From contig CAKVCX010000001.1 in NCBI GenBank assembly GCA_934725985.1, positions 365,910 through 429,909 of the forward strand: a DNA stretch of 64,000 nucleotides, written 5' to 3'. The notes beneath the pieces were generated by a model, which was not told the DNA's origin, searched no databases, and worked only from the letters and a program-made list of their open reading frames with translations. The DNA is from an uncultured Bacilli bacterium. Its GTDB lineage: Bacteria > Bacillota_I > Bacilli_A > RFN20 > CAG-826. The position numbers and the translations under genes are program-made. Below are positions 9,167-48,369 of this stretch, one piece after another. The first letter of the stretch is position 1. Every line of letters starts with the position of its first letter.

Positions 9167-10027
9167 TTATTTAGAACTTAATTTTAATAAATCAGAATAT
9201 AAATCTACCCTTCTATCCCTAAACACGCCCCAATCTCGTCTTTCTTTATTTATCTTTTTAAAATCAAACTCATAAGTTAGGCAGTTTTCTTCGTCTCTAG
9301 TTAGTTCAGCAACTTTATTCCCGTACTCATCTGAAATAAAGCTAGAGCCAAAGAAAGTCATAGAAGAATTCTTAATAGATTCCTTGCCAATTCTATTGGC
9401 AGCTAAAACAGGAATTATATTTGATGCAGCATGGCCTTTCATAACGTTTTGCCAATGGTCTTTAGAGTCCTTATCTAAAACGGGCTCAGAACCAATCGCG
9501 GTTGGATAAAGCAATATTTCAGCACCTTTTAAAGCTAAAATCCTAGCTGTTTCAGGAAACCATTGATCCCAACAAATTCCCACGCCTATTTTTCCAATGG
9601 AAGTATCAAAAACCATGAACCCCGTATCGCCGGGAGTAAAATAAAATTTCTCTTCGTAACATTCGCCAGTTGGAATATGTGATTTTCTATATATTCCTAA
9701 AACATTTCCCTTCTCATTAATCATTGCTAATGAATTAAAGTAGCAATTATTATCTTTTTCAAAAAAAGAAATAGGTAAAATTACGTTATATTTTTTTGCC
9801 ATTTCTTGAAAATGGGATATGGTTTTGCTGTTACTAGCAACCTCTGCAAAATCAAAATAATCATAATCCTCTATTTGGCAAAAATAATAACGGGAAAAAA
9901 GCTCGGGAAGCAAAACTAATTTAGCTCCTTGCTTTGCTAATTTTTCGATATAATGGTCGGCTTTTGCGATGTTTTCCTCATAAATAGAAGACATTTTCAT
10001 TTGAACTAATCCTACTTTGACACTCAT
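9167..10027 (-). CDS. aguB: N-carbamoylputrescine amidase (CN-hydrolase family)
   Basis: Nitrilase-superfamily motifs (E...K...GICWDQWFPE). Start ATG at 10027 (MSVKVGLVQ) forms an ATGA overlap with the stop of the upstream gene and has a GGAGG RBS; the ORF-track start at 10060 is likely too long. Confidence 0.7.
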   Translation of the reverse strand: MSVKVGLVQMKMSSIYEENIAKADHYIEKLAKQGAKLVLLPELFSRYYFCQIEDYDYFDFAEVASNSKTISHFQEMAKKYNVILPISFFEKDNNCYFNSLAMINEKGNVLGIYRKSHIPTGECYEEKFYFTPGDTGFMVFDTSIGKIGVGICWDQWFPETARILALKGAEILLYPTAIGSEPVLDKDSKDHWQNVMKGHAASNIIPVLAANRIGKESIKNSSMTFFGSSFISDEYGNKVAELTRDEENCLTYEFDFKKINKERRDWGVFRDRRVDLYSDLLKLSSK

Positions 10028-12633
10028 TTTTTTACCTCCGGAATCTGCATGGTTATGCAATGTATGTTCCCCCCTCCTAATAAAATTTCCCTTGTATTGA
10101 TTTGATGAATTTTTTTCTTCGGGAACAAGGAAGAGAATAATTTATATGCCTCTTCGTCTTCTTCAACTCCAAAAGAGGGAAGAATAACAAAATTCTTTCC
10201 TTGATAGAAATTTACATAAGATGCAGAAAGCCTATCTGAATTATTCCTTGGCTTAGCATCAAATTTGTCTTTAGCAATTCCTTTTGCCTCTTCTGCACTC
10301 ATATATAAAGGAGGGTTTGGCAACATAGATTTATAGATCTCAAAATGTTTTCCTCTAGCGTCAGTCGCACCAAGTAAGGCTTGATATGTCAATTGGCAAT
10401 ACTCATATTGAGGATCGTTTTTATCATTTGTCCATGCCATCACTAAAACACCAGGTTTAACAAAGGCTACCATGTTATCTATATGTTCATTAGTTTCATC
10501 CATATAAATACCATGAGGAACCCAAATTATTTTCTCTAGAGATAAATATTCCTTCAATGTCTCTTCAATTTCTTCTTTTCTTAAAGTGGGGTTCCTTCCT
10601 TTTGAAAGCAAACAAGCTTCCGTGACAATGGCCGTACCTTTTCCATCAAAGGCAATTGAACCGCCTTCAAAAACAAAAGAAGGTAAACGATAATCTTGTA
10701 TTTTGTATTTTTTATCGAAAATAGAAGTTAATTTATCATCGTCATGGTAATTAGAATAAAGTCCATCGACTTCTCCTCCCCAAGCATTAAATCTAAAATC
10801 AACTCCACGAATATTCTTCCCATTTGTTAGGTAAATACCCATGTTGTCCCTAGCCCAAGAATCGTTATATCTGATTTTTAAGATTTCAACATTCCTAATA
10901 TTCTTATAAGTCGGGGCAACACTAGCATAAATAGAAGGATGGATCCCCACTATGACTTTTTCATGTTTTGCTATAGCTAAAATTACTTCTTTAAAGTTTT
11001 GTTGTGCAAAAGAAGCGTGGTTTCTCCAAGTGTCTTTTCTATACGGAATTAAAATTACAGTTGCTTTATGCTTATCGCCTTCAAAAGGCAATTTATAGCC
11101 ATCATTTGAAGGGGTGGTTTTTCTAGTCTCTTGGTATTCAATTAATCTTTTTGAATAAATTGAATATTTTTTCCATTTTTCAACGTCTACAATTTCAAAG
11201 CCATCTGGATAATTGCTTAAAATTGTTATACCCGATGATTTATAGAATTTAACCCTATCAATTAATTCTTTTGTCCAAACTTCTCCAGGGATAATCAAAG
11301 GAATGCCTGGTGGATAAATCATAACCATCTCTTTTGAAATCATCCCAAGACAATTATCTATTTTTGCTATTTTGCCATCTGCATGAAAGGCAACGCGTGG
11401 ACGAAGAAGCATAAAAGGGAATGAAGAATCAAAATGATGGTCGGTATAGATTATATTGGAATGGTAATGTTTCTTAGACAATTCTTTTAAAGCAAAGATA
11501 AGTTTATCGACATGTTCTTTTTTTGTTCCAATAGCAAAAATGCAAAGAACGGCATAAGTCTCCGCCAACTCAAGTTGTATGTCGTAATCCTTTTTGATTT
11601 CGTAATAAAGCTGAAAGCCATCTATATCTAGCTTATCTAGGCCAATTACCAATTTGGACTGATCATAATCAAATGAACCATGTTCTAAAAAATGTTTTTT
11701 ATCTTCTACTATAAATCCCGGTATTTTATCAATCTCTTCTTTTGCATATTCGGCCAATTCATAGACTCTTTCCTGAGCTTGTTTTCCTTTTGTTGCCATA
11801 AAGCTTCTTGCCCCATCTAAAGAAGCCATAAGTATCATTGAAGGAGAAGTCGTATTAATAATATTTAAAGATTTTTGAACATCATATCTAGAAAACATCT
11901 TTCCTTTTAATAGCAAAGCGGAAGTTTGGGTTAAAGAACCGGCTGTTTTATGAATAGAAACGCTAGACATATCTGCCCCGGCATCCATTGCACTAATAGG
12001 GGAATTTTTTGCATGGAAATAATAATGGGCTCCATGGGCTTCATCAACTAAAACAGCCATGTTGTGTTCATGGGCAATAGTAACAATAGATTTTAAGTCA
12101 GAAACAGACCCAAAATAAGTCGGGTTTATTACAAAAACCGCTTTAGCAGAAGGGTGCTTTAGAATCGCTTTTTTAAACTCTTCTACAGAAGGTTGATTAG
12201 CGATCTCTAAATCATTATCAATTTCAGGCATTACAAAAACAGGGATGGCGCCACTTAAAACCAACGCATTTATTATTGATTTATGGACATTACGAGGGAG
12301 TATTATTTTTTCTCCTGCTTTAACTGCAGTTAAAATCATTGCAATGATGCCAGAAGAGGTGCCGTTTATTAAAAAGAAAGCATCGTCGGCATTAGTTGCC
12401 TCTGCTAATAACTTTTCGGATTGAAGAAGCGGTCCCTTAGGCTTAGCTAAATTGTCCGTGCCTATTGGGGCGTTAATATCAAGGCGATAAAGTTTCTTTC
12501 CTAATAGGCGAGTAGCTTTATTATCTATGTTGCCCATGTGATGGCCAGGAACGTCAAAAGGAACAACATCTTTCCTTACGTATTTTTTAATGCAATCTAT
12601 GAAAGGGGTTCTTCTTTGATCTAGTTTATTCAT
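10024..12633 (-). CDS. fused arginine decarboxylase (Orn/Lys/Arg decarboxylase family, SpeA-type) / agmatine deiminase (AguA)
   Basis: N-terminal half aligns with B. subtilis SpeA (PFDVPGHH…, IILPRNVHKSIINALVLSGAIPVF, SIHKTAGSLTQTS PLP-lysine). C-terminal ~370 aa is an agmatine deiminase/PAD_porph domain ending in GGGNIHCITMQIP with a catalytic Cys. Single 869-aa ORF with no internal stop. Confidence 0.8.
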   Translation of the reverse strand: MNKLDQRRTPFIDCIKKYVRKDVVPFDVPGHHMGNIDNKATRLLGKKLYRLDINAPIGTDNLAKPKGPLLQSEKLLAEATNADDAFFLINGTSSGIIAMILTAVKAGEKIILPRNVHKSIINALVLSGAIPVFVMPEIDNDLEIANQPSVEEFKKAILKHPSAKAVFVINPTYFGSVSDLKSIVTIAHEHNMAVLVDEAHGAHYYFHAKNSPISAMDAGADMSSVSIHKTAGSLTQTSALLLKGKMFSRYDVQKSLNIINTTSPSMILMASLDGARSFMATKGKQAQERVYELAEYAKEEIDKIPGFIVEDKKHFLEHGSFDYDQSKLVIGLDKLDIDGFQLYYEIKKDYDIQLELAETYAVLCIFAIGTKKEHVDKLIFALKELSKKHYHSNIIYTDHHFDSSFPFMLLRPRVAFHADGKIAKIDNCLGMISKEMVMIYPPGIPLIIPGEVWTKELIDRVKFYKSSGITILSNYPDGFEIVDVEKWKKYSIYSKRLIEYQETRKTTPSNDGYKLPFEGDKHKATVILIPYRKDTWRNHASFAQQNFKEVILAIAKHEKVIVGIHPSIYASVAPTYKNIRNVEILKIRYNDSWARDNMGIYLTNGKNIRGVDFRFNAWGGEVDGLYSNYHDDDKLTSIFDKKYKIQDYRLPSFVFEGGSIAFDGKGTAIVTEACLLSKGRNPTLRKEEIEETLKEYLSLEKIIWVPHGIYMDETNEHIDNMVAFVKPGVLVMAWTNDKNDPQYEYCQLTYQALLGATDARGKHFEIYKSMLPNPPLYMSAEEAKGIAKDKFDAKPRNNSDRLSASYVNFYQGKNFVILPSFGVEEDEEAYKLFSSLFPKKKIHQINTREILLGGGNIHCITMQIPEVKK

Positions 12634-12690
12634 AACGACAAAAGTCTACTATTAATTATATTGATAAGTTAGATATTTTTTAATTTTGTT

Positions 12691-13475
12691 TTACCTTAAA
12701 ATTTTTAAATGCAGAAGCGCTTTTGTAATCCCGTCATTTTCCACATTGCTCGTAACATAATTAGCCACCTTTTTCACCTCTTCTTTGCCATTTCCCATGC
12801 AAACAAATATCCCAGTAGCCATAGACATAGAAATATCTTGTATGTCATCGCCAAACGATATGGATTCTTCTTTCTTTATTTTTAGGTATGAAAGAACGCT
12901 ATTTATACCGTCACCTTTATTATGTTCCCCTCCATTAATATCAATGCCATAATCTGCGAATCTAAAATGGACTAAATGCGGAAATTTTTCTTTTAGTTCC
13001 TTATCAATACTAGAGGGAGCATATATAAAAGGGTTCCTAATACCTCTTCGTTTTTAAATGGATGAATACTTTTGCATTCATCATGAAATATTTCTTGATA
13101 CAAATAATAATAATCATTCGGTTCTTTAATAAGAAAACGGTCCCACGGGGTCACTAATTGCATTGTTAGATTCTTACTTAAAGCAAAAGAAATTAAAGAA
13201 GAAACATCTTTCTTTTTCATTGTTAGTTTTCTCGTTACAATCGTTTTATTTAAGCAAGCGAAAGCGCCAGCTGAAGAAATGAAACCATCCCAATCTATCC
13301 CTAAGGAGAACACGCCGAATTCATAAAGGCTTTTTGTGTTCCTAGCCGTACAAATAAATACTTTAACGCCTTGTTCTTGTAATCTTTTAATAGACGTTAA
13401 AGACGAAGGAATAAACCTATTGGAATTATGATCAAACAAAGTCCAGTCAACATCAAAAAAAGCGGCCTTAATCAT
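12691..13475 (-). pseudogene. Cof-type HAD phosphatase, frameshifted (N-terminal part 12993-13475, C-terminal part 12691-13020 in another frame)
   Basis: N-terminal ORF has the FFDVDWTL (DxDxT) motif. The C-terminal HAD part (…KGDGINSVLSYLKIKKEESISFGDDIQD…) is open in a different frame; the shift lies near 13020-13045. Confidence 0.5.
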
Positions 13476-21016: not shown

Positions 21017-22753
21017 CTATTTATCGTTTCCTTGTTCTAAAAGGGATAATTCTTTCTTTAGTTTACTTTGGCTTAAAGAAAGCTTTTCCTTCTCTTCACT
21101 AGATAAGCCTTTAATTAAATTCAGTTGGGAATTGATATCGGATATTTTATCTTTTATAGGATAATTGGGGTTAGAAATAAGGGCTCTTAATCTCTTATCG
21201 GAAGCAATAACTTCAGAAATGGGCTTCTTTTCTTTTTTCAAGGAGGAAGCTTTCTTCACTTTGGAGGGTTCTTTTTTCTTATTTATGTTATCCTTTTTTC
21301 CCTTGACCTCGCTCTTTTTTAAAGGAGCTTTTCCTCTTTTTATTTCTTTAGTAGCTAGTGTTTCGTTCCTAGTTTTAGCCTCAATCCTAGATTTTACTTT
21401 TTCTTCTGGAATCGCAACAACCAAAACAGGCGAAGCAATAGCCATTCCTAGTTTATCTTCTTGTTTGCTTGCACTTTCTTCCTTCTTAGGCATTTTGGTT
21501 TCTTTTGAAATAAAAGGAACATCCTTTTTTTTGATTTTCTTAGGCGCTTCTTTTGGCTTTAAGTTATCTCTTTTTGTCTTTTCCTTGTCCTTTATTGCTT
21601 TAGAGAAATCAAAATAAACATGAAAGCCATTATTCGCCTTTTCTGCAATTACTTCGAAAGAAGAATACATGAAAGAAGTTTTATTTTTCTTAGAAAGAAG
21701 GGAATAGATTTTTGAACTAATTTGTTCAAAATCATTTAAGGTAAGATCAACATCGCCATGCACTCCTTTAACGAAAGGAATTGAGGGGTCGCGGAACATC
21801 AAGTTATAGTGGTGTGCTACTTGGTGAAGCGCATCTTCGACTTTCCAACCACTTCCAAAATATAATTTTTCATTCGGCTTGTCGATTAATTCTTTCTTTT
21901 TTAAATCCTTTTTATCCTCTTGCTTAGAAGAATATTCCTTTAACAAGGCGTTCAATTTGGTGCTATCGTAAACCAAAGATATCTCTTTTGCTTCTTCTTT
22001 GCTTAACTTAGCAATATTTTTAAGCTGGTATTTTATATCTTCTATTCTTTTTTCTTTCGAATAAGAAGATGAAAGGAATCTTTCCTTTAATTTAGAATCC
22101 GTTTCGACTGTTTTATTAAAAACATAAGAACGTTTTGGTTCTATTTTCTCTTTTGGAGTATTTCTTTGCTTGCTTTGATTGTTTCTATTTTCGTTATTGT
22201 TTTTAAGTAAGCCACTATTCCTTTGTAAAGTCCCGCCCTTTGTAATTTTATAAACACAAACTCTATACCCTTTTTGACTGCCTAAATTATTAAGCTTAAT
22301 TAGGTCTTCTGCTAAATGATTGTCTTGGGTAATAACAGCAATTTTAGAAGTTATGCGATCATTAGATACACGAACATATATGGCATTATCGGCAAAGTTT
22401 TGATTCTTTTCTTTTTTACTAATCGTCAATAATTTTTTCCATGTAGCATGACGAAGTATTTTTAATGCTCTTTTTGCCGCGATACGTTTCGAATCATTAT
22501 TCTTATCGTGGACATGTTTTTTCAATTCATCTTCACATTTTTGAAAAACTATTATTGGTTGTCCTGCTTTGCGATATTCTTTGGCGTTTTCAATAACGTC
22601 CATCCATTCAGGGAAATTTTCATCCATAAGAGAGCAAGTATCCAATATGATATAGTCGAATGGATTCAATAATTCGGCCATCTCAGAGGATTTTCTCTCA
22701 TCAATAAACATATTTTTATATTTTCTATAAACCTCCTTTTTAGAATTATACAT
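21017..22753 (-). CDS. PIN-like domain protein with long Lys/Glu-rich low-complexity C-terminal tail
   Basis: N-terminal DYIILDTCSLMD…(PIN-type acidic residues) followed by ~350 aa of K/E/S-rich repeats (KKEKK, EKLSLSQSKLKKELSLL). Confidence 0.4.
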   Translation of the reverse strand: MYNSKKEVYRKYKNMFIDERKSSEMAELLNPFDYIILDTCSLMDENFPEWMDVIENAKEYRKAGQPIIVFQKCEDELKKHVHDKNNDSKRIAAKRALKILRHATWKKLLTISKKEKNQNFADNAIYVRVSNDRITSKIAVITQDNHLAEDLIKLNNLGSQKGYRVCVYKITKGGTLQRNSGLLKNNNENRNNQSKQRNTPKEKIEPKRSYVFNKTVETDSKLKERFLSSSYSKEKRIEDIKYQLKNIAKLSKEEAKEISLVYDSTKLNALLKEYSSKQEDKKDLKKKELIDKPNEKLYFGSGWKVEDALHQVAHHYNLMFRDPSIPFVKGVHGDVDLTLNDFEQISSKIYSLLSKKNKTSFMYSSFEVIAEKANNGFHVYFDFSKAIKDKEKTKRDNLKPKEAPKKIKKKDVPFISKETKMPKKEESASKQEDKLGMAIASPVLVVAIPEEKVKSRIEAKTRNETLATKEIKRGKAPLKKSEVKGKKDNINKKKEPSKVKKASSLKKEKKPISEVIASDKRLRALISNPNYPIKDKISDINSQLNLIKGLSSEEKEKLSLSQSKLKKELSLLEQGNDK

Positions 22754-31230: not shown

Positions 31231-31315
31231 GGGTTCCCTTTGAACTCACAAAACTACTAAAAATAGTAAAAATGTGAGTTATGCACTATAATATTAGTAT
31301 TAAGGAGGAACATCC

Positions 31316-32560
31316 ATGATTTTTCAAAGGCATATTTCTTCAGCAGTAAGCAGAAGCATTAGCGAGTACCCAATAACCTTGATTACAGGCGCTCGTCAGG
31401 TTGGGAAAACAACGCTGGTTACCATTATTGAAAGAGAACGCGGTTATAAATATGTATCATTTGATGATACTGAGTTGCTTGCCTCTGCGAAGGCGAATCC
31501 AAAAAAGTTTATTAAGGAACATCCTGCACCAATCATTTTCGATGAAGTTCAAAAGGCGAAAGAACTATTCCCAGAAATTGAAGCGATTGTGAACGAAGTG
31601 AGGAGGGAAAGAGGCTCTCAGTCTGCAAACGGCATGTATATCTTGACGGGCTCGCAAAAATTCAATTTGATGAAAGAAATAAGCGAATCGATGTCGGGAA
31701 GGGTATCCATCATTGAAATGCCTCCCTTAAGCCAAGCTGAAATCAGAAATTGGCCTGAACCCGTTTTTTCAGTTGATAATATTAATATGCTTAGTGATTC
31801 GGAAAAACGTTCTTTGAGCGATGAGGATTTGTATCTATCTATAGTCCGTGGGTTTTATCCTGCTCGATGGGAGATTGAGGGAAAGCCAATTGAAAATTAT
31901 TTTTCAAATTACATGAAAACATATTTGGATCGAGATGTCTCTCAGCTAATCGCTTTGAAAGACAAGGTTAAGTTCGAGAATCTATTACGAGTGCTTGCTT
32001 CTTTAACAGGGCAGGAATTTATTCCGGACAACATTGCAAAAACTATAGGTGTCGATAAAAACACAGTCAACGCTTGGATAAATATTGCTATTGCCGGTGA
32101 TATCGTGACTTTGCTATCACCATATTACGAAACTTCAATTAATAAAAGAATTATAAAGCGACATAAGCTTTACTTTAATGACACCGGATTCGCATGCTAT
32201 CTTTTGGGAATCGACTCGCCAAAGGCTCTTCGCCTCTCTTCTTTTAGGGGCTCTTTAGTTGAAACCTATATTCACAATGAAATTAGAAAATCTTATTTAA
32301 ATAACGGCCTGGAAGATAAAAACATGTTTTTCTACCGAGACAATAATCAAAATGAAATAGATTTGATTTTGCTCAGGGATGGCAAGCTGGATTTCGTAGA
32401 ATGCAAATCCGGAAAAAAATTCACGCGCGAAAACGTCAAGGCGTTTTCACAATTGAAGAACACGTCATTCGAAATAGGTGGGCAGTGTATTGTTTGCACT
32501 GCGGAAGAGGCGTACCGAATTTCCTCAAACGTATATGCTTACCCTGTCCGTTGCATATAA
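31316..32560 (+). CDS. AAA-family ATPase with C-terminal DUF4143 domain
   Basis: Walker A GARQVGKTT, Walker B IIFDEVQ, C-terminal DUF4143-like region; GGAGG RBS; ~40% GC. Confidence 0.7.
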   Translation: MIFQRHISSAVSRSISEYPITLITGARQVGKTTLVTIIERERGYKYVSFDDTELLASAKANPKKFIKEHPAPIIFDEVQKAKELFPEIEAIVNEVRRERGSQSANGMYILTGSQKFNLMKEISESMSGRVSIIEMPPLSQAEIRNWPEPVFSVDNINMLSDSEKRSLSDEDLYLSIVRGFYPARWEIEGKPIENYFSNYMKTYLDRDVSQLIALKDKVKFENLLRVLASLTGQEFIPDNIAKTIGVDKNTVNAWINIAIAGDIVTLLSPYYETSINKRIIKRHKLYFNDTGFACYLLGIDSPKALRLSSFRGSLVETYIHNEIRKSYLNNGLEDKNMFFYRDNNQNEIDLILLRDGKLDFVECKSGKKFTRENVKAFSQLKNTSFEIGGQCIVCTAEEAYRISSNVYAYPVRCI

Positions 32561-32783
32561 TCTTTAGGAAGGTGATCGATAAGCTGAATCCGAATCTAAG
32601 ATCCACCGAAGAAAGCGACGGGAAAACAAGGAAATGCGAATTCTACAACCCATCTTGATCCGATGCTTATACAATCTTTGAAACCATTGCACAAATTAAC
32701 GGATTGAAACTGAATCTAGGCTTGGCCAAGCCTTTCGCACTGTGCCTCGTATTGGTGGATTAGTTCTTCGCGTCAAAACTATG

Positions 32784-33200
32784 CATGTTGAGACTGTGGT
32801 GTTGCTTTGTCGCAAAAATGGCAAAAAATAGCCAAAAATCGTGAAAATTTGATGGATTTCCTTCTTTCGAAAATGAGGGGAATCCTCTTTTTTTTGAGAA
32901 AACCGCCCAAAAACCAGGTAAAGCGGTAAAAATATGGCCTTTACTCGTATGGGGAAATAGGTCGACGCTCAAAATGAGCATCCATCCTATGTCGTATCGA
33001 CACGGGAATGGGTGACCATACCTGTACATAATGGATGGAACAGGTCAAAAAGCCCGTAATCATCCGCCTTTTCGGAAATTCATAGTTTCATCGTTTTTGA
33101 TGTTTTCGGAAAACAATGCAACCACACGCTCAACCCGGAAAGCCGATTTCCTGCCTAAAAAGGGGCAAACACGGAGGTGTAGTTTAACCAGAAGCATAAA
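32784..33200. repeat. rlmD-3'end repeat copy B
   Basis: Carries a copy of the last 16 codons of rlmD plus homologous downstream sequence; preceded by the conserved right-end motif cactgtgcctcgtattgg…ttcttcgcg. Confidence 0.7.
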
Positions 33201-33404
33201 ATATGGAATGACATTGAATACCGTGTGTAAGCAAAATAATCATAATGGCTATGCGGCTTTTTGCTTGTCGAGCCCAGCAAGCAATGGTTATCATGTCGAA
33301 TTACGCGAACTTATTGTCACTCCTATTTCCAGTGCCAATCGGTGCCAAAATAGTGCCATTTATGGCATCGGTGTGTTATATTATTGGCGAAAAGTGAAAT
33401 ATCT

Positions 33405-34796
33405 ATGTTGAAAGAACTGATTGCTGAGTGCACCGATTATGACTATAAAGTGTCTGTTGAAACCAAAAAACCAAGAAGCTGGCTAAAAACCGTGTCCGCT
33501 TTTGCTAACGGAGTGGGAGGCTCATTATTCTTTGGTATAAGCGATGAAGGAAATGTTATAGGGCTCAAAAATATAAAAGAAGATTCTGAAAGAATTTCTG
33601 AATTGATTAAGACGCGAGTTGAACCTAGGCCCATATTTGTTTTGATTCCTCATCAAATCGACTCAACGGCGATTTTAGAAATACAAATTCAACCTGGGAC
33701 ATCTACCCCATATTATTATCATTCTGACGGTGTGACCATTGCTTATATTCGTTCCGGCAATGAATCCATAGAAGCCCCCACATATATACTTAATGAATTG
33801 ATACTGAGAGGAACGGGACAGACTTTTGATGGCGTTCTCACAGGCGATTCTTTTTCGGATTATGCTTTTTCGTTTTTGAAATCCAAGTATCTCAAAAAGA
33901 CTCAAACGAGGCTTAATGACCGCGATTTTGTTTCATTTGGATTGATGAAGAACGACCATTTAACTAGAGCCGGTCTTTTGCTTGCTGACGAAAATGAATT
34001 GTTGCAAAGTAGGCTATTTTGCACTAGATGGAATGGCATTAATAAAGTAAACGAAAAAGTGGTCATAGACGATGATGAGATAAGTGGTTCTATCATAAAA
34101 CAGCTCGATGCGGCCTTCGATTTTTACAAAAGAAACACAAAAAGTGCATGGCATAAAGAAGGAGAGGGTACCGTCAATGAACCAGAGTATGACGATATCG
34201 CCATTACGGAAGCCCTTGTTAATGCGATAATCCATCGTGATTATAATATCGTCGGGGCCGAGACGTGTTTAAATATCTATGACGATCGCATTGAAGTCAC
34301 ATCGCCGGGCATGATGTTTTCCGGCAAAAAAATTCCTGAAGTGATTGATTATCCAATGGAATCCATTAGGCGCAATCCCGTTATTGCTGACGTATTCAAT
34401 AGAATGAATTTGATGAACAGAAGAGGATCTGGTCTGTCTAACATCACAAATAGAACAAACGCCCTATTTAGCGATGGCAGAAATCATGTGACCTTCGCTT
34501 CGGAAGACGGTTTTTTTACTGTAAGAATCGAAAACTCCAAATATAAAGGCAACGCGGCAGCGGCAAGTGATAACGGAGAAGCGGTTGCCGATATGAACCG
34601 ATTATTGACGCTAAACGAATATGCTGTTTATTCGAAGTTGAAAACTAACGCGAAGCTTTCTTATGACGAATTATCTAAAGAAGTGGAAATCTCTAGAAGA
34701 ACTGTAGCAAGAGCCATAGCGGCTTTAGTGGAAAAGGGCTATATCAAAAGAGCTGGTTCCGCTAATAAGGGCGGATATTGGATTATTTTAAAATAG
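33405..34796 (+). CDS. AlbA_2 (divergent AAA/Schlafen-like) + HATPase_c-like + wHTH putative DNA-binding regulator
   Basis: N-terminal AlbA_2-type domain (VSAFANGVGGSLFFGI), central ATP-binding-like region (ITEALVNAIIHRDY), C-terminal winged HTH (LSYDELSKEVEISRRTVARAIAALVEKGYI). Confidence 0.55.
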   Translation: MLKELIAECTDYDYKVSVETKKPRSWLKTVSAFANGVGGSLFFGISDEGNVIGLKNIKEDSERISELIKTRVEPRPIFVLIPHQIDSTAILEIQIQPGTSTPYYYHSDGVTIAYIRSGNESIEAPTYILNELILRGTGQTFDGVLTGDSFSDYAFSFLKSKYLKKTQTRLNDRDFVSFGLMKNDHLTRAGLLLADENELLQSRLFCTRWNGINKVNEKVVIDDDEISGSIIKQLDAAFDFYKRNTKSAWHKEGEGTVNEPEYDDIAITEALVNAIIHRDYNIVGAETCLNIYDDRIEVTSPGMMFSGKKIPEVIDYPMESIRRNPVIADVFNRMNLMNRRGSGLSNITNRTNALFSDGRNHVTFASEDGFFTVRIENSKYKGNAAAASDNGEAVADMNRLLTLNEYAVYSKLKTNAKLSYDELSKEVEISRRTVARAIAALVEKGYIKRAGSANKGGYWIILK

Positions 34797-34845
34797 TTTT
34801 TACGGCATATCGCTTTTCTTATATTGGCTAAGCAATCTGCTTTTG

Positions 34846-35000
34846 GGCGGTTGCACAGTTGTGTTTAGACCGTGGTCGATTTATTCCCTCCACACATTAC
34901 CTCGTATTGGCAGGCCTGTTCTTTGCGCCCAATCTGTTCGTGTTGAGACGGTGGTGCAACTGGTTCGGAAATAATGCAATAAATACGGGGCTTTTGGCAA
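34846..35000. repeat. degenerate partial repeat copy (right-end motif + diverged rlmD 3' fragment)
   Basis: ggttgcacag…cctcgtattggcaggcctgttctttgcgcccaatctgttcgtgttgagacggtggtgcaactggttcg matches the motif preceding copies B and C and the first ~30 nt of the repeat. Confidence 0.5.
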
Positions 35001-35370
35001 ATTTGAGAAGAATAGAAAAATGCTAAAATTGCATAATTCTCTGAAATCTAGAAACTCTAAAAACAGCTACTAGACTCGGGAGACATATCGAATAGTGTCT
35101 GAAATACGGCACTTTTTCAATTTCGACCTAAAAGTACCTAAAAACATCGAAAAATGGCCAAAATTCCTGTAGACATGCTGAAAATTTGAAGTATCAAAGC
35201 CAATTATAAAAATAAGAAAAACGAGGCGAGGTGGCCTTGATACTACTAATGCATACAACATTAATAGGGCTAGAATCGTATCAATATGGCTTACCATCGA
35301 ATGCAATGCACTTGTCATTCCGAATATCACATACGCTGATGAAAAATCATTTGGGTATAACCTTGACGGT

Positions 35371-35640
35371 TTGGAGGATTGCGAAATACTCGCTTTTTCT
35401 GTAAAAGGCTCCATAAATGATTATCAACAGCTGACTTTGCTGAAAAAGACACTCTATATGGTCATAAACAGGTTAGCAAAGCTGCATACGATTGTGGTCT
35501 ATAGCGTTTCAATCGACAATGGAAAGGTGTTGGATCTCTTTCAATTTGCTATAGCTAAGGGAATCACAATTTTGATTCCTGACAATCTTCTCAAACTAAG
35601 AAATCTTGCATTAGGAGGCAACAAAAATGGGAAGATATAA
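35371..35640 (+). CDS. hypothetical protein; possible degenerate serine-recombinase/resolvase catalytic-domain remnant
   Basis: …HTIVVYSVSIDNGKVLDLFQFAIAKGITILIP… weakly resembles the C-terminal half of a resolvase catalytic domain. The similarity continues upstream in the same frame without an ATG, so it is probably a remnant. Confidence 0.2.
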   Translation: MEDCEILAFSVKGSINDYQQLTLLKKTLYMVINRLAKLHTIVVYSVSIDNGKVLDLFQFAIAKGITILIPDNLLKLRNLALGGNKNGKI

Positions 35641-35781
35641 GAAAACAGGCCTTTTCTTTGGTACTTCTGGATCCCACCAGTTGTCGTTTGAAAATTATGA
35701 ATATGAGGATAAAGTTAAGGAGCTCGAGAAAAAGACGGATATAACCGAAAAGAATTCGACAAAAACGAATTAAGTTATGAT

Positions 35782-36106
35782 TTGTCAAAATCAAAATTAG
35801 AAAATTATCTTCTTAATATAAATCATTCTGTTGGTGGGTCTAAGGCCAAATTTTTCATAAATGCACTGGCCTATTCGTACGATAAACCAAAACAATTTTT
35901 TGATAATGTTTCGGATGCTATTAATGGGGAAAAAACCAGTCAAAGATACAACAACAAAATATGGTAGAGTTCTCGAATTTCATGAGAGAATAAAAACAAT
36001 GTTTGGAGAATATAAGGAAGTTAATATCATAGTATCAATTCAAAAAGACCATGGAGCAAAAAAATATAGAATAATAACTATTTACCCAGGAAAGAAAGGA
36101 GAGTAA
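35782..36106 (+). pseudogene. DUF6883-like protein, frameshifted at an A-run (~35926-35932)
   Basis: Two overlapping frames together give a DUF6883-like sequence (…HSVGGSKAKFFINALAYS… / …KYGRVLEFHERIKTMFGEYKEVNIIVSIQKDHGAKKYRIITIYP). The frame switch is at gggaaaaaaacc. Confidence 0.4.
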
Positions 36107-36108
36107 TT

Positions 36109-36291
36109 ATGAAATTATATGATATAGTCCAATTAAAAGAACAATTTAATAATTATCCTAAAGGAACGACCGGCGTTATCGTTGAGATTTTCGAAAACGC
36201 CGACGCCTATCTTGAGATTGTAGATGACACCGGAAATGCTATAGATGTCATATACGATGTGCCATTATCAATTTTGGAAAAGAAAAAATAA
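36109..36291 (+). CDS. DUF4926 family small protein (putative partner of DUF6883)
   Basis: 60 aa MKLYDIVQLKEQFNNYPKGTTGVIVEIFENADAYLEIVDDTGNAIDVIYDVPLSIL matches the DUF4926 pattern; GGAG RBS. Confidence 0.55.
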   Translation: MKLYDIVQLKEQFNNYPKGTTGVIVEIFENADAYLEIVDDTGNAIDVIYDVPLSILEKKK

Positions 36292-37183
36292 TAGTAGTAC
36301 TCTAACATAGGATTCGTTGAGAAAATTGGCTCGATGTGTCTTATTATTGTGATTGCAAAGGAAAATAAAAAAGATGACTTTCACATAAATGATGAAGTAA
36401 AATGCCTTTCCATCAGTGATATAGTGTTGATTTTATTGCGATATTGACGACGGAAAGGCGTTTTAGTATGGGTTTTGCTCCGTCAAATGCTATATGATGA
36501 CATTAGAAAACCCTGCCGCAAGACTCTTGTTTCGGGGAGCTGACAGTCCCACAGATTCAAAAAATCGGTGAATAACTGGCGCACAGTTTCGTTTTAGAAT
36601 TTGGAAGAGAGATTGACGTCGTTTACGGCAATCTCACTAATGCCTAGTGCCTTCGCGGCCTCTTTGACTCCCCACAAACTCGGATTCCGCCTTTTTGACA
36701 TCTTCCCAGCTCCCGTAGTACTTTGAAGTGCTATCAATAAATAGACATAGACAGGACGTCCATAGTCACCGTATGGGGGTCAGGTCCGTTCACGTGGACA
36801 TGAGCCTGAACACGGAAGGAGAGCGCATACTTGGTGGAATACAGAACGATTGATCTGTTCCTTTACCCGCTTCCATCCGAGGCGTCCCAGCAAAGGATCA
36901 CGGATGAAATCAACAGGATGAAGGAACGTGGATGGTCTTACGTTGAATCAAAGGTCGTTGATGACTGCAACATCATGCTGATATTCAAAAGATGAATACC
37001 AGCCAAGAAGGATAAGTTCCTCCTTTTTCAATAAACGCTCCACGAAATACAAACAAAACATATTTGCAGGAGCGAACGCCGCAAAATTGATGGCATGGTT
37101 TTCTATTCATCGATTCTTTCTAGAGAATGTGCCTAGAGCATTGATAATTAATGATACATCGGTTACACTAATAAAGGAAATAG

Positions 37184-37801
37184 ATGATACGAATGAATCA
37201 AAATTACAATACGCTGATAAAGATAATTGAGTCTGGGGACGGAAGCATATCCAGGAAAGACGCCATGGCAAATGGTATTCCGCCGGCGACTTTCGCAAGG
37301 TACGTCAGCTCCAATCATCTGGTCAAAATCAGGCGCGGCGTATACGCGAAGGATGGCGCCGTGGACGACCTCTTCCAACTTCAGAGAAGGTATCCGGGGA
37401 TAGTGTATTCTGGTCTGACCGCGCTTTATCTTCTTGGCTTGACCGACAGGATTCCGGATTCGATTGAGTTCACGATCCCGAAAGGATGCCGCGTGAGGAA
37501 GAATAGCATCGGGGTCAACGCCATCTGCCACATCGAGAACAATGCCGAACTCTTTCATTTGGGAAACGTCAACACCCAAACCATGTTCGGAAATGAAGTC
37601 ATTTGTTACTCAAGAGAGAAAATGATAGTTGAGATGATACGGAAGAGGGACGATTACGATTCGGAGCTGTTCCTGAAGGCGGTGAGAACGTTCCTGAAGG
37701 GGAAGGTCAGGGACATGGGTTTCCTCTTCAGATACGCGAGAATGAGGAAAATGGAAGAGAAGGTATATCAAATTCTAGAGGCAATGGATTATGAGGATTA
37801 A
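37184..37801 (+). CDS. AbiEi-family (type IV TA antitoxin-like) DNA-binding protein
   Basis: N-terminal AbiEi_4-type motif (LIKIIESGDGSISRKDAMANGIPPATFARYVSSNHLVKIRRGVYA); ~50% GC. Confidence 0.6.
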   Translation: MIRMNQNYNTLIKIIESGDGSISRKDAMANGIPPATFARYVSSNHLVKIRRGVYAKDGAVDDLFQLQRRYPGIVYSGLTALYLLGLTDRIPDSIEFTIPKGCRVRKNSIGVNAICHIENNAELFHLGNVNTQTMFGNEVICYSREKMIVEMIRKRDDYDSELFLKAVRTFLKGKVRDMGFLFRYARMRKMEEKVYQILEAMDYED

Positions 37802-37967
37802 CAGGGATTCTCTTTCCGCTTCTCCTTATGTAGATATGTTCCTCTTCCAAGGATGAATTATTTATATTGGAGTTAACGTTGCAAATATTTTAAAAATATA
37901 AAAAATTGCCACGTTAACTATTAAATAACAATGCTATGGTATATAATAACAGCACAAGAGGCGAATT

Positions 37968-39197
37968 ATGAAACTCTATAAACGGGAAAAGTATCTGTCA
38001 AAGATGCGCGCGTTCTTCCACGATGACGATCTCATCAAAGTGATAACCGGGATACGCAGATGTGGGAAATCCAGCCTCATGCAAACCATAGCGGAGGAGC
38101 TTAAAAAAGGTGGCGTTGCAGAAAACAACATTATTTATATTGATCTCGACAAACGTGGGTATAAAAACATCCGAAGCGCCGATCAACTAGATTCGTTAAT
38201 CGAATCCGCCGCGCAAGCGAAGGGGATGAAATACCTTTTCATAGACGAGATTCAGAACGTCCAAGGCTTCGAGGAGGTAATCAACGGGTTCAGGTCCGAA
38301 GGCGGCTATTCGATTTTCATAACGGGCTCCAATTCCTATTTGCTCAGTGGAGAGCTCGTGACGAAGCTGACCGGTAGATATCTTGAATTCGAGATGTTCC
38401 CGCTGACATTCGACGAATACGAGGGCATGAAGAGGTTCTATGAGCGCGATATCGATGCCAACGCCGAAATAGAGCTGAATAACTATATTTTGGAAGGCGG
38501 ATTCCCGCGAGCCATTCAAATTGACAGCCTTTTGGACAAGCGTACCTACGTGAAGGGGATCATCAATGAGATCTTCGAAAAAGACATCAAGCGAAGGGTG
38601 AAAATCAAAGACGTTCAATCCTTTGATTTGGTCCGGAATTACATCATCAACAATTTCGGCGCGACGACGAGCATCAACAGCCTGCACGAAGCGCTTCTCA
38701 AAAACGGCATGGCCATCAGCCGCGCGACGGTGACCCGGTATATAAAAACGTTGGTTAATGCGAAGATTCTGTACGAATGCAAAAGGTTCGACATGAAATC
38801 AAAAAAAACACTCTCGGGAGAGCAAAAGTATTACGTCGCCGACCTGAGCTTTTACTACGCGATGAACACAGACAACCGAATTAATTACGGGCCGACGCTG
38901 GAGAACGTCGTGTATTTGTACGCAAGAAGCCTCGATTACGCGGTAAGCGTTGGACGCATCGGAAAGCTGGAATGCGATTTCATCCTCAGAGACGGCAACA
39001 TGGATTATTCCTATGTGCAGGTGGCTTATAAAATACTGCAAAGCAAAGACACGGAAGACAGGGAATATAGGCCGTTGGAGGGTATACGGGACAATTACAG
39101 GAAATACGTCATGACAACGGACTATATGCTGCAGAAGAGAAACGGCATCATCCATGTCAACCTGATGGATTTCATAGGCGGCGGCAAACGCTTTTAA
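37968..39197 (+). CDS. AAA-family ATPase with C-terminal DUF4143 domain
   Basis: Walker A GIRRCGKSS, Walker B LFIDEIQ, DUF4143-like C-terminus; ~52% GC; GAGG RBS. Confidence 0.7.
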   Translation: MKLYKREKYLSKMRAFFHDDDLIKVITGIRRCGKSSLMQTIAEELKKGGVAENNIIYIDLDKRGYKNIRSADQLDSLIESAAQAKGMKYLFIDEIQNVQGFEEVINGFRSEGGYSIFITGSNSYLLSGELVTKLTGRYLEFEMFPLTFDEYEGMKRFYERDIDANAEIELNNYILEGGFPRAIQIDSLLDKRTYVKGIINEIFEKDIKRRVKIKDVQSFDLVRNYIINNFGATTSINSLHEALLKNGMAISRATVTRYIKTLVNAKILYECKRFDMKSKKTLSGEQKYYVADLSFYYAMNTDNRINYGPTLENVVYLYARSLDYAVSVGRIGKLECDFILRDGNMDYSYVQVAYKILQSKDTEDREYRPLEGIRDNYRKYVMTTDYMLQKRNGIIHVNLMDFIGGGKRF

Positions 39198-39294
39198 GCA
39201 AAGTACCAACTCATTAAAATCGTATCCAATGCAGACGTCGCCGTTTAAAAGCGGAATTTGTAGAAATTACTGATGCAATGATTACATTGGACGT

Positions 39295-41479: not shown

Positions 41480-43588
41480 TTAATCGAAATAAGAAGAGGG
41501 AGTTGTTAATTTATTATTTTTATTTGTAAGAGTAAATAGAACACCTTTTGTAGAAGAACCACCATAGTAATTCTTATTCTCTCCAACGGATAATTTCCAT
41601 TCGCCAGTAGGATCGACATAGAAAAGATAACCCATATTCTCGTCTTGTTCTTCCGTCAATGTCCAACCTAGCGAAACTAGAAGTTCCTTATATTTATTAA
41701 TATAGGAATCCCTTTGTTCGTTCGTTTCAAATTCATTAGTCCTAAAAGCAACGTATTTAGAATAACTAGAATCCATAGTTCCTGAAGCATCTTTCCACCT
41801 TGCCCAAGCAACAGCATAATCTTTATAACCAGTGTTGGTCGGGTAAAGATATGGAACAACATTATCTACTCCCCATTCTTTTAGGGAAGCAAGCAGGGTT
41901 TCTGGGTATTCAGTTGGCTCAGTTTGGTCTACGATAGAAGACCAATCATAATTCAAAGCAGTAGTTCCGATTTTTGAAAACTCGCCAGAAAATTCAATCG
42001 TATCGTTTAAAGAGGAGGATGTTAGTTGGCCTTTCATGCTTGCAAGATGCCCGCCACTTAAAGTAAGGCTTACCTCTCCATTTACGGAATAATAATAAGC
42101 ATATCTAGGCAAACTAAAGCAATACGAAAGAAGTGAACCCGTATGGTCTCCACGTGATTTATAAACCCCATTATTTGCCGGGCCAAATACTTCCACGGCG
42201 AAATCGAATGTCGGATAGCGATTAATAGAGTCCCAAGAAGCAACATAATTCTTGGTTTTCGTTAAAGTGCCTGTAGTATCATCGTAAGTATAAGTAAAAT
42301 AACCAGTTCCGTCTTTATGAGCCCCATCATGAGCCAGGATTTTTCCATTTGAATCCACAATTTTTTCTTCGATGGTATCATCAGTATATACCATTGTATA
42401 AGTGGTCTTTCCATCATCCCCATCAATAGAATATGTAGCAGTATAATTTTTAGAAGCGGCAATTTCTTCCCTTGCCGTTTCTAAATCATCATGATAAGTT
42501 TCATGAACATACGGCTTAATATGGTCAATTTTTGCAGTACCAATTTCAGATATTGTGCCTTCCACTACTTGACCACCCTTATTTGCAACACCATCTTTTC
42601 CAAACGGGTCAGTAACAAAATAAATACCTAAAGAATCCCCATTAACTGTTATTGCAAATTCATCAGGGGTTATATCTTGAAGAACTAAAGAACAAGCTAA
42701 ATATGTTGTAGCCCAAAGGCTATTCCCAACATAGGAATAAGTTTTTCCTCCATCAAAGCTTTCAAAATCGGTAGCAGTAACCAAAGGTTCCATATCGGTG
42801 TTTTCTTCATATTTAAATAAATTTTCATAATAAGAATTCACCCATTTATATTCATCACCATCGTCATTAAATAAAGTAGCTTTTCCAATTTGGTTATCTT
42901 TATTTAAATATTCGGTAGCTAAACGTACACCGTTACGAACATATTTTCTTTCATATGTAACTTTTTGTGTTTCATGGTCTTTGACAGTAATTTGATAAGC
43001 ATCCGTATTATGATAGCTATCCATGTCATCGACTTCTTCATAAATGGTTGTGATATCAGATTGCTCGAAAAGGGTTGGATTAAGCTCTCTATCATAGTCA
43101 TATAGAGTTTGGGTCAATTCAACTTTCATTCCACCCGTTAGTTTATCAAACACCTCGCTAGACAAAGCGGTTCCATGGGCAATATTAAATGTTTTTGAAA
43201 CAATTACATCTTCTTCGCCTTCTAAATGAGCGGAAATAGTTGCTTCACCCTCGCTTACGGCGGTTAAAAGGGCCTCATTACTTATCCCTTCCATTTTAGA
43301 AGCACGGATAACGTTTGGGTCCGAGGATTGAAAAACAACATTTCCCGTAACGCCTTCTTTAAGAATGGCGTAAATGGAACGGCTTTGATTTAAATGTAAG
43401 TCACCATTCATTGCCAAAGTAAATTTGGCATTTTCTGGGGTAACCTCTTTAGTAGAACTAGATGAGGTTACTTCTTCTGAGGTTTTTTCTGTCGTGGAAT
43501 CTGCCGATTCGCTTGCATTTCCTCCGCTAGAAGCGCAAGAGCCAAGCAACAACGCGGCTGTTAGTATTAATATTTTCCTTTGTTTCAT
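41480..43588 (-). CDS. large surface lipoprotein (Ig-like/BIG domain-containing)
   Basis: Lipobox LLLGSCASS, S/T-rich linker, then ~650 aa Y/G/T/D-rich beta-rich extracellular region. Confidence 0.5.
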   Translation of the reverse strand: MKQRKILILTAALLLGSCASSGGNASESADSTTEKTSEEVTSSSSTKEVTPENAKFTLAMNGDLHLNQSRSIYAILKEGVTGNVVFQSSDPNVIRASKMEGISNEALLTAVSEGEATISAHLEGEEDVIVSKTFNIAHGTALSSEVFDKLTGGMKVELTQTLYDYDRELNPTLFEQSDITTIYEEVDDMDSYHNTDAYQITVKDHETQKVTYERKYVRNGVRLATEYLNKDNQIGKATLFNDDGDEYKWVNSYYENLFKYEENTDMEPLVTATDFESFDGGKTYSYVGNSLWATTYLACSLVLQDITPDEFAITVNGDSLGIYFVTDPFGKDGVANKGGQVVEGTISEIGTAKIDHIKPYVHETYHDDLETAREEIAASKNYTATYSIDGDDGKTTYTMVYTDDTIEEKIVDSNGKILAHDGAHKDGTGYFTYTYDDTTGTLTKTKNYVASWDSINRYPTFDFAVEVFGPANNGVYKSRGDHTGSLLSYCFSLPRYAYYYSVNGEVSLTLSGGHLASMKGQLTSSSLNDTIEFSGEFSKIGTTALNYDWSSIVDQTEPTEYPETLLASLKEWGVDNVVPYLYPTNTGYKDYAVAWARWKDASGTMDSSYSKYVAFRTNEFETNEQRDSYINKYKELLVSLGWTLTEEQDENMGYLFYVDPTGEWKLSVGENKNYYGGSSTKGVLFTLTNKNNKLTTPSSYFD

Positions 43589-44016: not shown

Positions 44017-44784
44017 ATGAATAACGAAAAAGAGCCACATATTATTGCCGTCTCAGGCAAGGGAGGGGTAGGCAAGACTTCAATCGCCGCGACGATTGTA
44101 AAGCTTTTGGTTCAAAATTACCCCGATAAAAAAATACTTGCGATAGATGCCGATCCAGCGGTTGGCCTATCCACCGCTTTAGGGATAGAGGCAAATAAAA
44201 CAATCGATGACGTTAGAAAAGAAGCCATAAAAGCTTCAGAAGATGGAAAAAATGCCGTTGTTGAAGTCTTAGGCAATGCCGAATACTCAATAGAGGAAGC
44301 CATAGTTAGCAAAAACGGTTTCTCCTTTATGGCCATTGGACGTCCGGAAGCAAGTGGCTGTTATTGCAAAATAAATACCTACCTAAAGGAAGTAATTTCC
44401 TCTATTTCTTCTTATTATGATTATGTCGTAATAGATGGAGAAGCCGGCATTGAGCAAATCAATCGCCGCGTCATGGAAAAAGTAACAGATCTTTTGCTAA
44501 TAACCGACCAAAGCCAAAAAGGAAGACAAGTTGTCAAAACAATAAAAGGAGTTGCCGACAATCTAGTTATGTATAAACAAATAGGTATCATAGCTAACCG
44601 CCTTTCTCCCTTAGCAATGAAAGAAAATTTAAACGTAGATAACATACCCGTATTAGCAAAAATCCCAATGGATGAAGAATTAGCTAATTATGATATGAAT
44701 GGAGATAACGTTTTCTTCTTATCCAATGATGCGCCCATTGTAAAAGGCGTAAATGAAGCCTTAAAAAAGATTCATATATTATAA
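44017..44784 (+). CDS. CooC/AcsF-type MinD-family P-loop ATPase (metal-cluster maturation factor-like)
   Basis: Deviant Walker A AVSGKGGVGKTS and a CxC motif (SGCYCK), characteristic of the CooC nickel-insertion ATPase family. Confidence 0.6.
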   Translation: MNNEKEPHIIAVSGKGGVGKTSIAATIVKLLVQNYPDKKILAIDADPAVGLSTALGIEANKTIDDVRKEAIKASEDGKNAVVEVLGNAEYSIEEAIVSKNGFSFMAIGRPEASGCYCKINTYLKEVISSISSYYDYVVIDGEAGIEQINRRVMEKVTDLLLITDQSQKGRQVVKTIKGVADNLVMYKQIGIIANRLSPLAMKENLNVDNIPVLAKIPMDEELANYDMNGDNVFFLSNDAPIVKGVNEALKKIHIL

Positions 44785-44797
44785 AAAGGATGGCTAT

Positions 44798-47547: not shown

Positions 47548-47565
47548 AAAGAAAGGAAAAAGAAT

Positions 47566-48369
47566 ATGAAATACTTTGGTGGATGTGATGCCGGATCGAC
47601 ATATACAAAATGTGTCATCCTTGACGAAAATGGAAAAATGGTCGCTAATGTGACATTAAAATCGAAAATAAATGCAGTCGAAAGCGCTCGGCTTGCCTTA
47701 GAAGAAGCCATAAAACAAGTAGAAGGCCTTAACGAAACAAAAGACTTGGCCTATCTAATCGGCACAGGTTATGGAAGAAACAAAGTGCCTTTTGCCGATG
47801 AAAACATTTCTGAAATTTCTTGCCATGCGATGGGGGTCCATCTAGCCGATCCTAGCATTACTTCCATTATCGATATCGGTGGGCAGGATATTAAAGGCAT
47901 TGCCATCGATCCAAAAGATGGAACCGTGCAAAATTTTGCCATGAATGATAAATGCTCCGCCGGAACCGGACGTTTCTTTGAGGCCATGGCACGCAGTTTT
48001 GAAATGGATTTGGATGATTTTTGTTCTCTTTCTTTAAAAGCTAATAACATCATTCCCATTACTTCTCAATGCACTGTCTTTGCCGAATCCGAAGTCATCT
48101 CCTTAGTTGGCGAAGGAAAGCCAATGGAAGATATAGCAGCAGGAATAATGACCTCAGTTGCTAAAAGATGCTTCGTCATGGCTAAAAAAGCCGGGGCCAC
48201 AGATTCGATTACTTTAACAGGTGGATGTGCTAAAAACCTTGGTTTAAAACAAGCCATTGAAAAAGTACTTCACTTAAAAGTAAAAGACTTGCCTATCGAC
48301 CCTCAATTAATGGGAGCTTTAGGCGCGGCAGAATACGCTAGAAGAAAAGGAATGAAAGAAGGAAGATAA
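47566..48369 (+). CDS. BadF/BadG/BcrA/BcrD-type ATPase, acyl-CoA dehydratase activase (HgdC-like)
   Basis: N-terminal GGCDAGSTYTKCVILDENG (ASKHA fold), two conserved Cys for the bridging [4Fe-4S], ~260 aa size. Confidence 0.8.
   Translation: MKYFGGCDAGSTYTKCVILDENGKMVANVTLKSKINAVESARLALEEAIKQVEGLNETKDLAYLIGTGYGRNKVPFADENISEISCHAMGVHLADPSITSIIDIGGQDIKGIAIDPKDGTVQNFAMNDKCSAGTGRFFEAMARSFEMDLDDFCSLSLKANNIIPITSQCTVFAESEVISLVGEGKPMEDIAAGIMTSVAKRCFVMAKKAGATDSITLTGGCAKNLGLKQAIEKVLHLKVKDLPIDPQLMGALGAAEYARRKGMKEGR

Follow-up and report, generated by a model that had tools for sequence, protein, structure and literature searches.

A predicted arginine decarboxylase::agmatine deiminase fusion protein encoded together with N-carbamoylputrescine amidase in a clade of uncultured Bacillota

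Putrescine can be formed from arginine by a known three-step route, in which arginine decarboxylase (ADC), agmatine deiminase (also agmatine iminohydrolase, AIH) and N-carbamoylputrescine amidase (NCPAH) act in sequence with agmatine and N-carbamoylputrescine as intermediates. Here, we describe a locus in a 64-kb stretch of DNA from an uncultured Bacilli bacterium (the window), in which the first two of these enzymes are predicted to be joined in a single polypeptide that is encoded directly upstream of aguB, the gene for the third. The closest characterised system is the operon of Streptococcus pneumoniae and the mitis group, which consists of the genes for the ADC SP_0916, speE, the carboxyspermidine dehydrogenase CASDH, the carboxyspermidine decarboxylase CASDC, aguA and aguB. 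SP_0916 has been shown biochemically to be an ADC (PMC7531197). Like the window, this operon combines an ancestral-form ADC of the aspartate aminotransferase (AAT) fold with AguA and an NCPAH-type AguB, and the three proteins share 41% (ADC), 45% (AguA) and 52% (AguB) identity with their counterparts in the window. By contrast, the streptococcal genes are separate, and the ADC gene and aguA lie ~3.3 kb apart with the spermidine/carboxyspermidine genes between them.

The ancestral AAT-fold decarboxylase family includes ADCs, ornithine decarboxylases (ODCs), lysine decarboxylases (LDCs) and the non-polyamine YaaO enzymes (Li et al., PMC8503589). The same work describes a fusion in this family, i.e. 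the protein of Fusobacterium nucleatum in which an ancestral-form ODC (aODC) is joined to an arginase/agmatinase-like domain (782-783 aa; P0145 in our data set), and which is similar in overall size to the fusion in the window. In the Fusobacterium protein, however, an ODC from a separate clade is joined to an arginase-fold domain, which is without the Mn ligands and hence probably inactive. The window protein instead has a guanidino-modifying deiminase (PAD_porph rather than Arginase) with intact catalytic residues as its second domain.

The fusion gene is a single uninterrupted open reading frame (ORF) of 869 codons on the minus strand (10024..12633) and, together with aguB, most likely forms a two-gene operon for putrescine biosynthesis. 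Its parts and aguB are arranged as follows:

11188..12633, minus strand: decarboxylase half, aa 1-482, an ancestral-form AAT-fold Orn/Lys/Arg decarboxylase, predicted ADC
11098..11187, minus strand: connector, aa 483-512 (DVEKWKKYSIYSKRLIEYQETRKTTPSNDG), predicted helical and of fixed length
10024..11097, minus strand: agmatine deiminase half, aa 513-869 (PAD_porph/TIGR03380), including the TGA stop codon at 10026-10024
9167..10027, minus strand: aguB, N-carbamoylputrescine amidase, 286 aa (TIGR03381)

A first-pass annotation, made from the letters alone, had proposed that the 869-aa ORF joins a complete B. subtilis-type Orn/Lys/Arg decarboxylase to a complete agmatine deiminase with the catalytic Cys in GGGNIHC, and that an AguB-like CN-hydrolase follows by an ATGA overlap. 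The profile and structure comparisons bear out each of these proposals. In the decarboxylase half, Pfam OKR_DC_1 matches aa 9-303 (E=3e-65, 221 bits with a gathering cut-off of 27) and OKR_DC_1_C matches aa 408-465 (34.9 bits, cut-off 24.2). Because the OKR_DC_1 match begins at aa 9, the N-terminal REC “wing” is absent, and the extended E. coli-type enzymes are matched only from their residues ~105-150 onwards; in other words, the decarboxylase is of the short form, which is defined by a size of ~480-490 aa without the REC wing (PMC8503589). Among solved structures, 2x3l matches this half with E=1.7e-33. Lys229 in S-I-H-K (codon 11947-11949) and Asp197 in V-D-E-A-H are, as expected for this fold, the presumed PLP (pyridoxal phosphate)-binding and cofactor-binding residues, respectively. 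No substitution of K229, H228, D197 or H200 occurs across 65 aligned fused homologues.

The deiminase half is covered by PAD_porph at aa 515-865 (E=3.5e-98) and scores 407.1 bits against the NCBIfam equivalog TIGR03380 (aguA; cut-off 381.8) with 356 of the 357 model positions covered (1-356). It carries the motifs NDSWARD (590-596), EGGSI (656), EHIDN (716-720) and GGGNIHC, the last of which contains the catalytic Cys859 (codon 10057-10059), and it aligns end to end with the AIH of A. thaliana (1vkp/3h7c, E=9e-86) with NDSWxRD, EGGSI, HIDN and GGGNIHC conserved. C859, H858, H717, D719, D591 and D596 are invariant in the 65 fused homologues. The aguB ORF is listed as 9167..10060 (minus strand), but the start codon that makes biological sense is the ATG at 10027, which gives a product of 286 aa. 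This product scores 419.8 bits against TIGR03381 (equivalog cut-off 410.25), has the triad Glu42-Lys115-Cys152 within the motifs PELF, YRKSH and ICWDQ, and matches the NCPAH of Medicago (5h8i) with E=1.9e-91 and with the catalytic motifs aligned. The ATG of aguB (10027-10025) and the TGA of the fusion gene (10026-10024) overlap as ATGA (...ccGGAGGtaaaaaaATGAgtg). By these comparisons, the catalytic motifs are intact in all three enzymes, and the E-values of the domains together with an ORF of 869 codons in DNA of 34% G+C place the architecture far beyond chance.

Because sister genomes have overlapping but separate genes for the two halves, a one-base error in sequencing or assembly could mimic a fusion of two adjacent genes. 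However, the assembled sequence contains no stop codon or frameshift at the domain junction, and the exact 869-aa protein is present on at least seven contigs in NCBI, ENA and Logan assemblies, some of them larger than 1 Mb. Moreover, the top 120 matches among 5.8 billion proteins are all clusters with both halves (59-97% identity) and, except for two partial entries, are full length with 858-899 aa; the number of clusters with full-length fusions is a lower bound and exceeds 120. A scan of GTDB species representatives added the frame-continuous fusion in 14 further metagenome-assembled genomes (MAGs), again with a junction of fixed length. Based on this recurrence across contigs, clusters and species representatives, we reject an assembly artefact, to which we assign a practically negligible probability; the question of an artefact that the first-pass annotation had raised is thereby settled in favor of a genuine fusion. 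At 50% clustering, the fusion reduces to essentially two representatives, and it therefore marks one fairly tight clade of uncultured Bacillota rather than being unique to the genome of the window. Bacilli, Erysipelotrichaceae, Bacillales UBA1624 and RUG187 (rumen) are among the MAG labels in this clade. At every fused locus, the next gene is aguB, at a distance of -11 to +4 nt, and six of the loci, including the window, have the ATGA overlap.

The connector between the two halves is conserved along with them. The segment 478-515 is 38 aa long in 63 of the 65 sequences and contains the invariant residues D483, W487, Y500 and D511. In each alignment column, the commonest residue has an average frequency of 0.64 in this segment vs 0.73-0.75 in the domains. 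An AlphaFold2 model of the whole 869-aa protein, built on the alignment of the 65 fused homologues, has a mean pLDDT of 90.7 and a pTM of 0.86 and places helices at 488-492 and 494-503 of the connector (pLDDT ~85-90). In a Foldseek search with this model, the deiminase half superimposes on 3h7c, 3h7k and 1vkp with a TMt of 0.95-0.96 and an rmsd of 1.3-1.4 A, and no solved chain covers both halves. The constant length of the junction, the invariant residues and the predicted helices together argue for a structured connector under selection rather than a loose linker or a read-through accident. The C-terminal tails of two unfused decarboxylases, in loci L015 and L018, are homologous to the connector, which appears to derive from such a tail.

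By neighbour-joining (100 bootstraps), all fused decarboxylase domains group in a single clade (98/100). Their sister group consists of the genes of loci L015, L016 and L017 (100/100) with Acholeplasma genes next (85/100). The fused AguA halves also form a clade of their own (95/100). The gene clusters of the sister group are informative about how the fusion may have arisen. In L016, from an uncultured Mollicutes MAG, the TGA of the gene for a 483-aa ADC lies in a 4-nt overlap with a separate aguA (368 aa), which is read in a different frame from a TTG start codon, and aguB comes next. In L015, from an uncultured Anaeroplasma MAG, the ADC has 509 aa and ends in a tail (DFDTWDLYEKHKKDLEEYYESIKLTK) homologous to the connector, while aguA, in the +1 frame, opens ~26 nt upstream of the ADC stop codon and is followed by aguB. 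Both clusters have the gene order of the window and contain overlapping genes, and identities to the window are 54-55% for ADC, 49-50% for AguA and 61% for AguB. Unlike in the window, ADC and aguA are kept apart by a stop codon and a shift of frame, and the ADC of L016 is without the tail that forms the connector. In L015 (4150-4260), the aguA start lies inside an A-rich stretch, and the two genes would either truly overlap or be a single fused gene with a 1-nt indel. We treat L015 as unfused because it groups with L016 (99/100), but it might be a fusion that was broken by a 1-nt indel.

The fusion has a single origin and, because ADC, aguA and aguB are unfused but overlapping in the sister genomes, one fusion of adjacent genes is the simplest history suggested by these sequences. 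In this scenario, the three genes would have been adjacent and already overlapping before the fusion, the stop codon or frame boundary of the ADC gene would have been lost once, and the decarboxylase's own C-terminal tail would have become the rigid helical connector. In the Acholeplasma MAG with L018, the ADC gene is overlapped by a gene for a speB-like agmatinase. The view of the first-pass annotation that speA of the B. subtilis type is usually followed by speB holds for several Clostridia and Acholeplasma loci; it is not general, as the ADC of mitis streptococci is encoded with aguA and aguB. The history of the fusion also includes decay. In the 863-aa relative P0122 (L082, 6001-8592), one of the representatives at 50% clustering, the decarboxylase half is intact (57% identity). 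None of the catalytic motifs is left in its deiminase half (for instance, GGGNIHC has become MKSNLSE), which matches PAD_porph with only 28.8 bits. On its only contig, no aguB start is present in the 237 bp between the end of the P0122 gene and the contig end. By its sequence, the deiminase half of P0122 is probably a pseudo-enzyme domain, comparable to the arginase domain without activity in the Fusobacterium protein.

Two further elements flank the coding regions of the operon:

10035..10039, minus strand: Shine-Dalgarno sequence of aguB (GGAGG), within the 3'-terminal part of the fusion gene and 7 nt upstream of the aguB ATG
12655..12683, minus strand: promoter-like site TTAAAA-17 nt-TATAAT with 10/12 consensus matches, within the 56-nt gap that precedes the fusion gene

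The arrangement of GGAGG and aguB recurs in the loci L003 and L012. The -10-like TATAAT ends ~21 nt upstream of the ATG of the fusion gene, implying a very short leader. Upon inspection of 12634-12689 (minus strand), no obvious Shine-Dalgarno sequence was found before this ATG at 12633, and an Rfam scan of the window for a riboswitch or leader gave no match. Directly upstream of the fusion gene lies a gene for a Cof-type HAD hydrolase (12690-13475, minus strand) that is split by a frameshift into an N-terminal ORF of 160 aa (13475..12993) and a C-terminal part in another frame, which ends near 12690 and matches positions 156-255 of the Hydrolase_3 profile (E=5.5e-23). The Logan contig L001 encodes an identical fusion protein and shares the truncated gene call of 160 aa; therefore, the split gene is either a pseudogene or the result of a shared error. 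The neighbours of the operon encode a 5'-nucleotidase-like protein, patatin, HAD hydrolase, GH2 and similar proteins.

Based on these data, we suggest the following model for the function of the operon. The N-terminal PLP-dependent, ancestral-form AAT-fold decarboxylase would convert L-arginine to agmatine and CO2; the C-terminal deiminase would hydrolyse agmatine to N-carbamoylputrescine and NH3 via a thiouronium intermediate at Cys859; and AguB, a CN-hydrolase with a Glu-Lys-Cys triad, would convert N-carbamoylputrescine to putrescine, CO2 and NH3. Both activities of the fusion protein would thus reside in one polypeptide, and aguB would be translationally coupled to the fusion gene. We consider it very probable that the fusion protein is a bifunctional ADC/AIH. 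The arginine specificity of the decarboxylase half is suggested by its fusion to AguA, by the synteny with aguB, by sister genes beside aguA or agmatinase genes and by the phylogeny, in which its clade is separate from the Fusobacterium aODC clade (P0145 and L063, 100/100). The proposed coupling of a decarboxylase to AguA is further supported by a second, independent family in which a decarboxylase of the alanine racemase (AR) fold is fused to AguA (see below). We also count P0122 in favor of a bifunctional ADC/AIH, as its decayed deiminase half is found without aguB in the 237 bp that follow.

Several observations weigh against this assignment. No sequence rule is known for substrate preference in the decarboxylase family; genome context can mislead, as the homologue in C. 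botulinum is an aODC although AIH and NCPAH are also encoded; and the second domain of the Fusobacterium aODC::arginase fusion is inactive (all PMC8503589). Our phylogeny rests on neighbour-joining trees only. The promoter-like site is no better than chance, since such sites occur in the region at the frequency expected from shuffled sequence, and the counts from a terminator scan of the region likewise equal the shuffle expectation. Finally, tblastn searches with SpeB, SpeE, CASDH and CASDC and Pfam searches of the remaining large ORFs identified no further polyamine genes in the 64-kb window, be it for spermidine synthesis or for polyamine transport.

The first two of these points bear on a reading in which the decarboxylase half is an ODC, an LDC or a YaaO-like enzyme and the AguA half acts on imported agmatine, so that the two steps would not be consecutive. 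ODC, LDC, bifunctional O/LDC and YaaO enzymes are indistinguishable by identity alone, the ODC homologue of C. botulinum provides a precedent, and the best unfused matches of the decarboxylase domain (41-51% identity) include Clostridium proteins. Nevertheless, we regard this reading as very unlikely, because all members of the clade have the decarboxylase fused to AguA, with coupling to AguB, and because its nearest unfused relatives are encoded directly upstream of aguA/aguB or of a speB-like agmatinase gene, an arrangement that is sensible only for an enzyme producing agmatine. In addition, the Fusobacterium aODC clade is separate in the tree, and the Bacilli enzymes tested so far gave ADC activity only (PMC8503589). 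YaaO, a paralogue of SpeA implicated in the modification of elongation factor P (EF-P), is rejected specifically by the criterion of downstream genes from the same study: its marker tmk is absent downstream of the fusion gene, where aguB is found instead. Even less probable, and indeed extremely so, is that one half of the window protein is a catalytically dead pseudo-enzyme domain. The Fusobacterium fusion and the loss of all deiminase motifs in P0122 are precedents for such a domain (PMC8503589 for the former); however, the catalytic motifs of both halves are invariant in the window protein and the 64 other fusions, the AguA half scores above the equivalog cut-off of TIGR03380, and its model matches AIH at 1.3-1.4 A. 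A dead domain is therefore rejected for the window protein.

A different question is whether the operon is mainly catabolic or protective, i.e. serves an acid resistance that depends on arginine or the production of ammonia in the gut. The enzymology would be the same in this case, which rivals the biosynthetic reading only with respect to the physiological role. It would fit with a pathway that takes up one proton and yields two NH3 and two CO2 per arginine, with MAG labels that suggest rumen or gut habitats and with spermidine genes not being found nearby. On the other hand, putrescine carbamoyltransferase, carbamate kinase and the agmatine/putrescine antiporter of the catabolic agmatine deiminase (AgDI) system are absent from the neighbourhood, no amino-acid or polyamine antiporter is present in the window, and the third enzyme is a biosynthetic-type NCPAH. 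The AgDI system as such is excluded, as neither the neighbours nor the rest of the window contain its families and the third enzyme is a CN-hydrolase. A mainly catabolic or protective operon is thus unlikely in our view, while the operon may have a secondary role in pH or ammonia balance. We favor the biosynthetic reading, with a bifunctional ADC/AIH and AguB producing putrescine.

Beyond the operon, the region 31300-39200 of the window has a raised G+C content (0.40-0.44 vs ~0.33 elsewhere) and encodes two AAA_14/DUF4143 ATPases, a Schlafen AlbA_2/HATPase_c_4 protein and an AbiEi-like antitoxin, while a gene for an Eco57I-type methylase (53863-55596) lies beside an ORF of 996 aa (50871-53861) without a Pfam match; together, these are probably a defence or mobile island. 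Genes at 44017-48369 (plus strand) encode a ParA/CbiA-like ATPase, two HGD-D (2-hydroxyacyl-CoA dehydratase) subunits and a BcrAD/BadFG-type activator. The GC skew switches sign near 28 kb, at the cumulative minimum, and at ~50 kb, and both changes coincide with coding-strand switches; no replication genes were identified at these switches (~28000 and ~50000). For the products of three large ORFs on the minus strand, 21017-22753 (578 aa), 41480-43588 (702 aa) and 55574-56569 (331 aa), no Pfam match reaches E<=1e-5.

The fusion has consequences for annotation, for the assignment of specificity and for understanding how genes fuse. In public databases, the protein is named for one activity: the NCBI cluster is called “agmatine deiminase [Bacillota bacterium]” and relatives at JGI are called “arginine decarboxylase” or “lysine decarboxylase”. 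This protein, which is widespread in uncultured gut and rumen Bacillota, probably performs both activities, which affects reconstructions of putrescine production. Because the family of the decarboxylase is otherwise unpredictable with respect to substrate, the fusion would serve as a Rosetta-stone link that assigns arginine to one of its clades. Finally, the separate, overlapping, fused and decayed forms provide a clean example of coupled neighbours becoming one gene. We consider the novelty to be moderate, as neither the enzymes nor the pathway are new, enzymes for successive steps are often found fused and no new chemistry is implied. A full-text literature search, the coverage of which does not extend to every older paper on polyamine fusions, returned no description of an ADC::AguA fusion.

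Linked or consecutive polyamine steps are carried on one polypeptide in other systems as well. For instance, the AdoMetDC/ODC fusion of Plasmodium combines S-adenosylmethionine decarboxylase with ODC, bacteria and diatoms reportedly have AdoMetDC::aminopropyltransferase fusions (said to have been described by Green et al. in 2011), and a plant “putrescine synthase” was reportedly described by Srivenugopal and Adiga in 1981. To our knowledge, none of these joins ADC to agmatine deiminase. The survey of AguA homologues for N-terminal decarboxylase fusions that the first-pass annotation had suggested recovered the fused clade described here and one further family with such a design. In this family (P0214 and five relatives, ~1050 aa), the decarboxylase is also N-terminal to an intact AguA (GGGNIHC, NDSWARD) and the source genomes are Bacillota-type MAGs. 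However, the decarboxylase has a non-homologous fold, the AR fold (PF02784/PF00278), the family is rare with 6 clusters, and the downstream gene encodes a GNAT acetyltransferase (P0271; L083, 5001-8156) rather than AguB. Because the AguA domains of this family form a separate clade (100/100), the P0214-type fusion is independent of the one in the window. Some unfused relatives of the P0214 family are decarboxylase::GNAT fusions (P0283, P0293, P0295), and the search of representatives also returned other architectures (P0134, P0242, P0184, P0250), namely an NNMT/PNMT-type methyltransferase::OKR_DC_1 protein of ~735 aa, a 5-formyltetrahydrofolate cyclo-ligase::AguA protein of 556 aa and an Sm_multidrug_ex::OKR_DC_1 protein of 686 aa.

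As for the benefit of the fusion in the window, it may lie in co-stoichiometry of the two enzymes, in their proximity or, possibly, in channelling of agmatine. We speculate, although we find it rather unlikely, that the fixed-length helical connector holds the PLP and deiminase sites in a defined geometry within an oligomer, such that agmatine would be passed on without equilibrating with the cytoplasm and the protein would be a true channelling “N-carbamoylputrescine synthase”; the independent AR-fold::AguA fusion would then reflect the same pressure to sequester agmatine in gut Bacillota. With a rigid connector in one system and a second, convergent ADC::AguA fusion for comparison, channelling of agmatine is directly testable.

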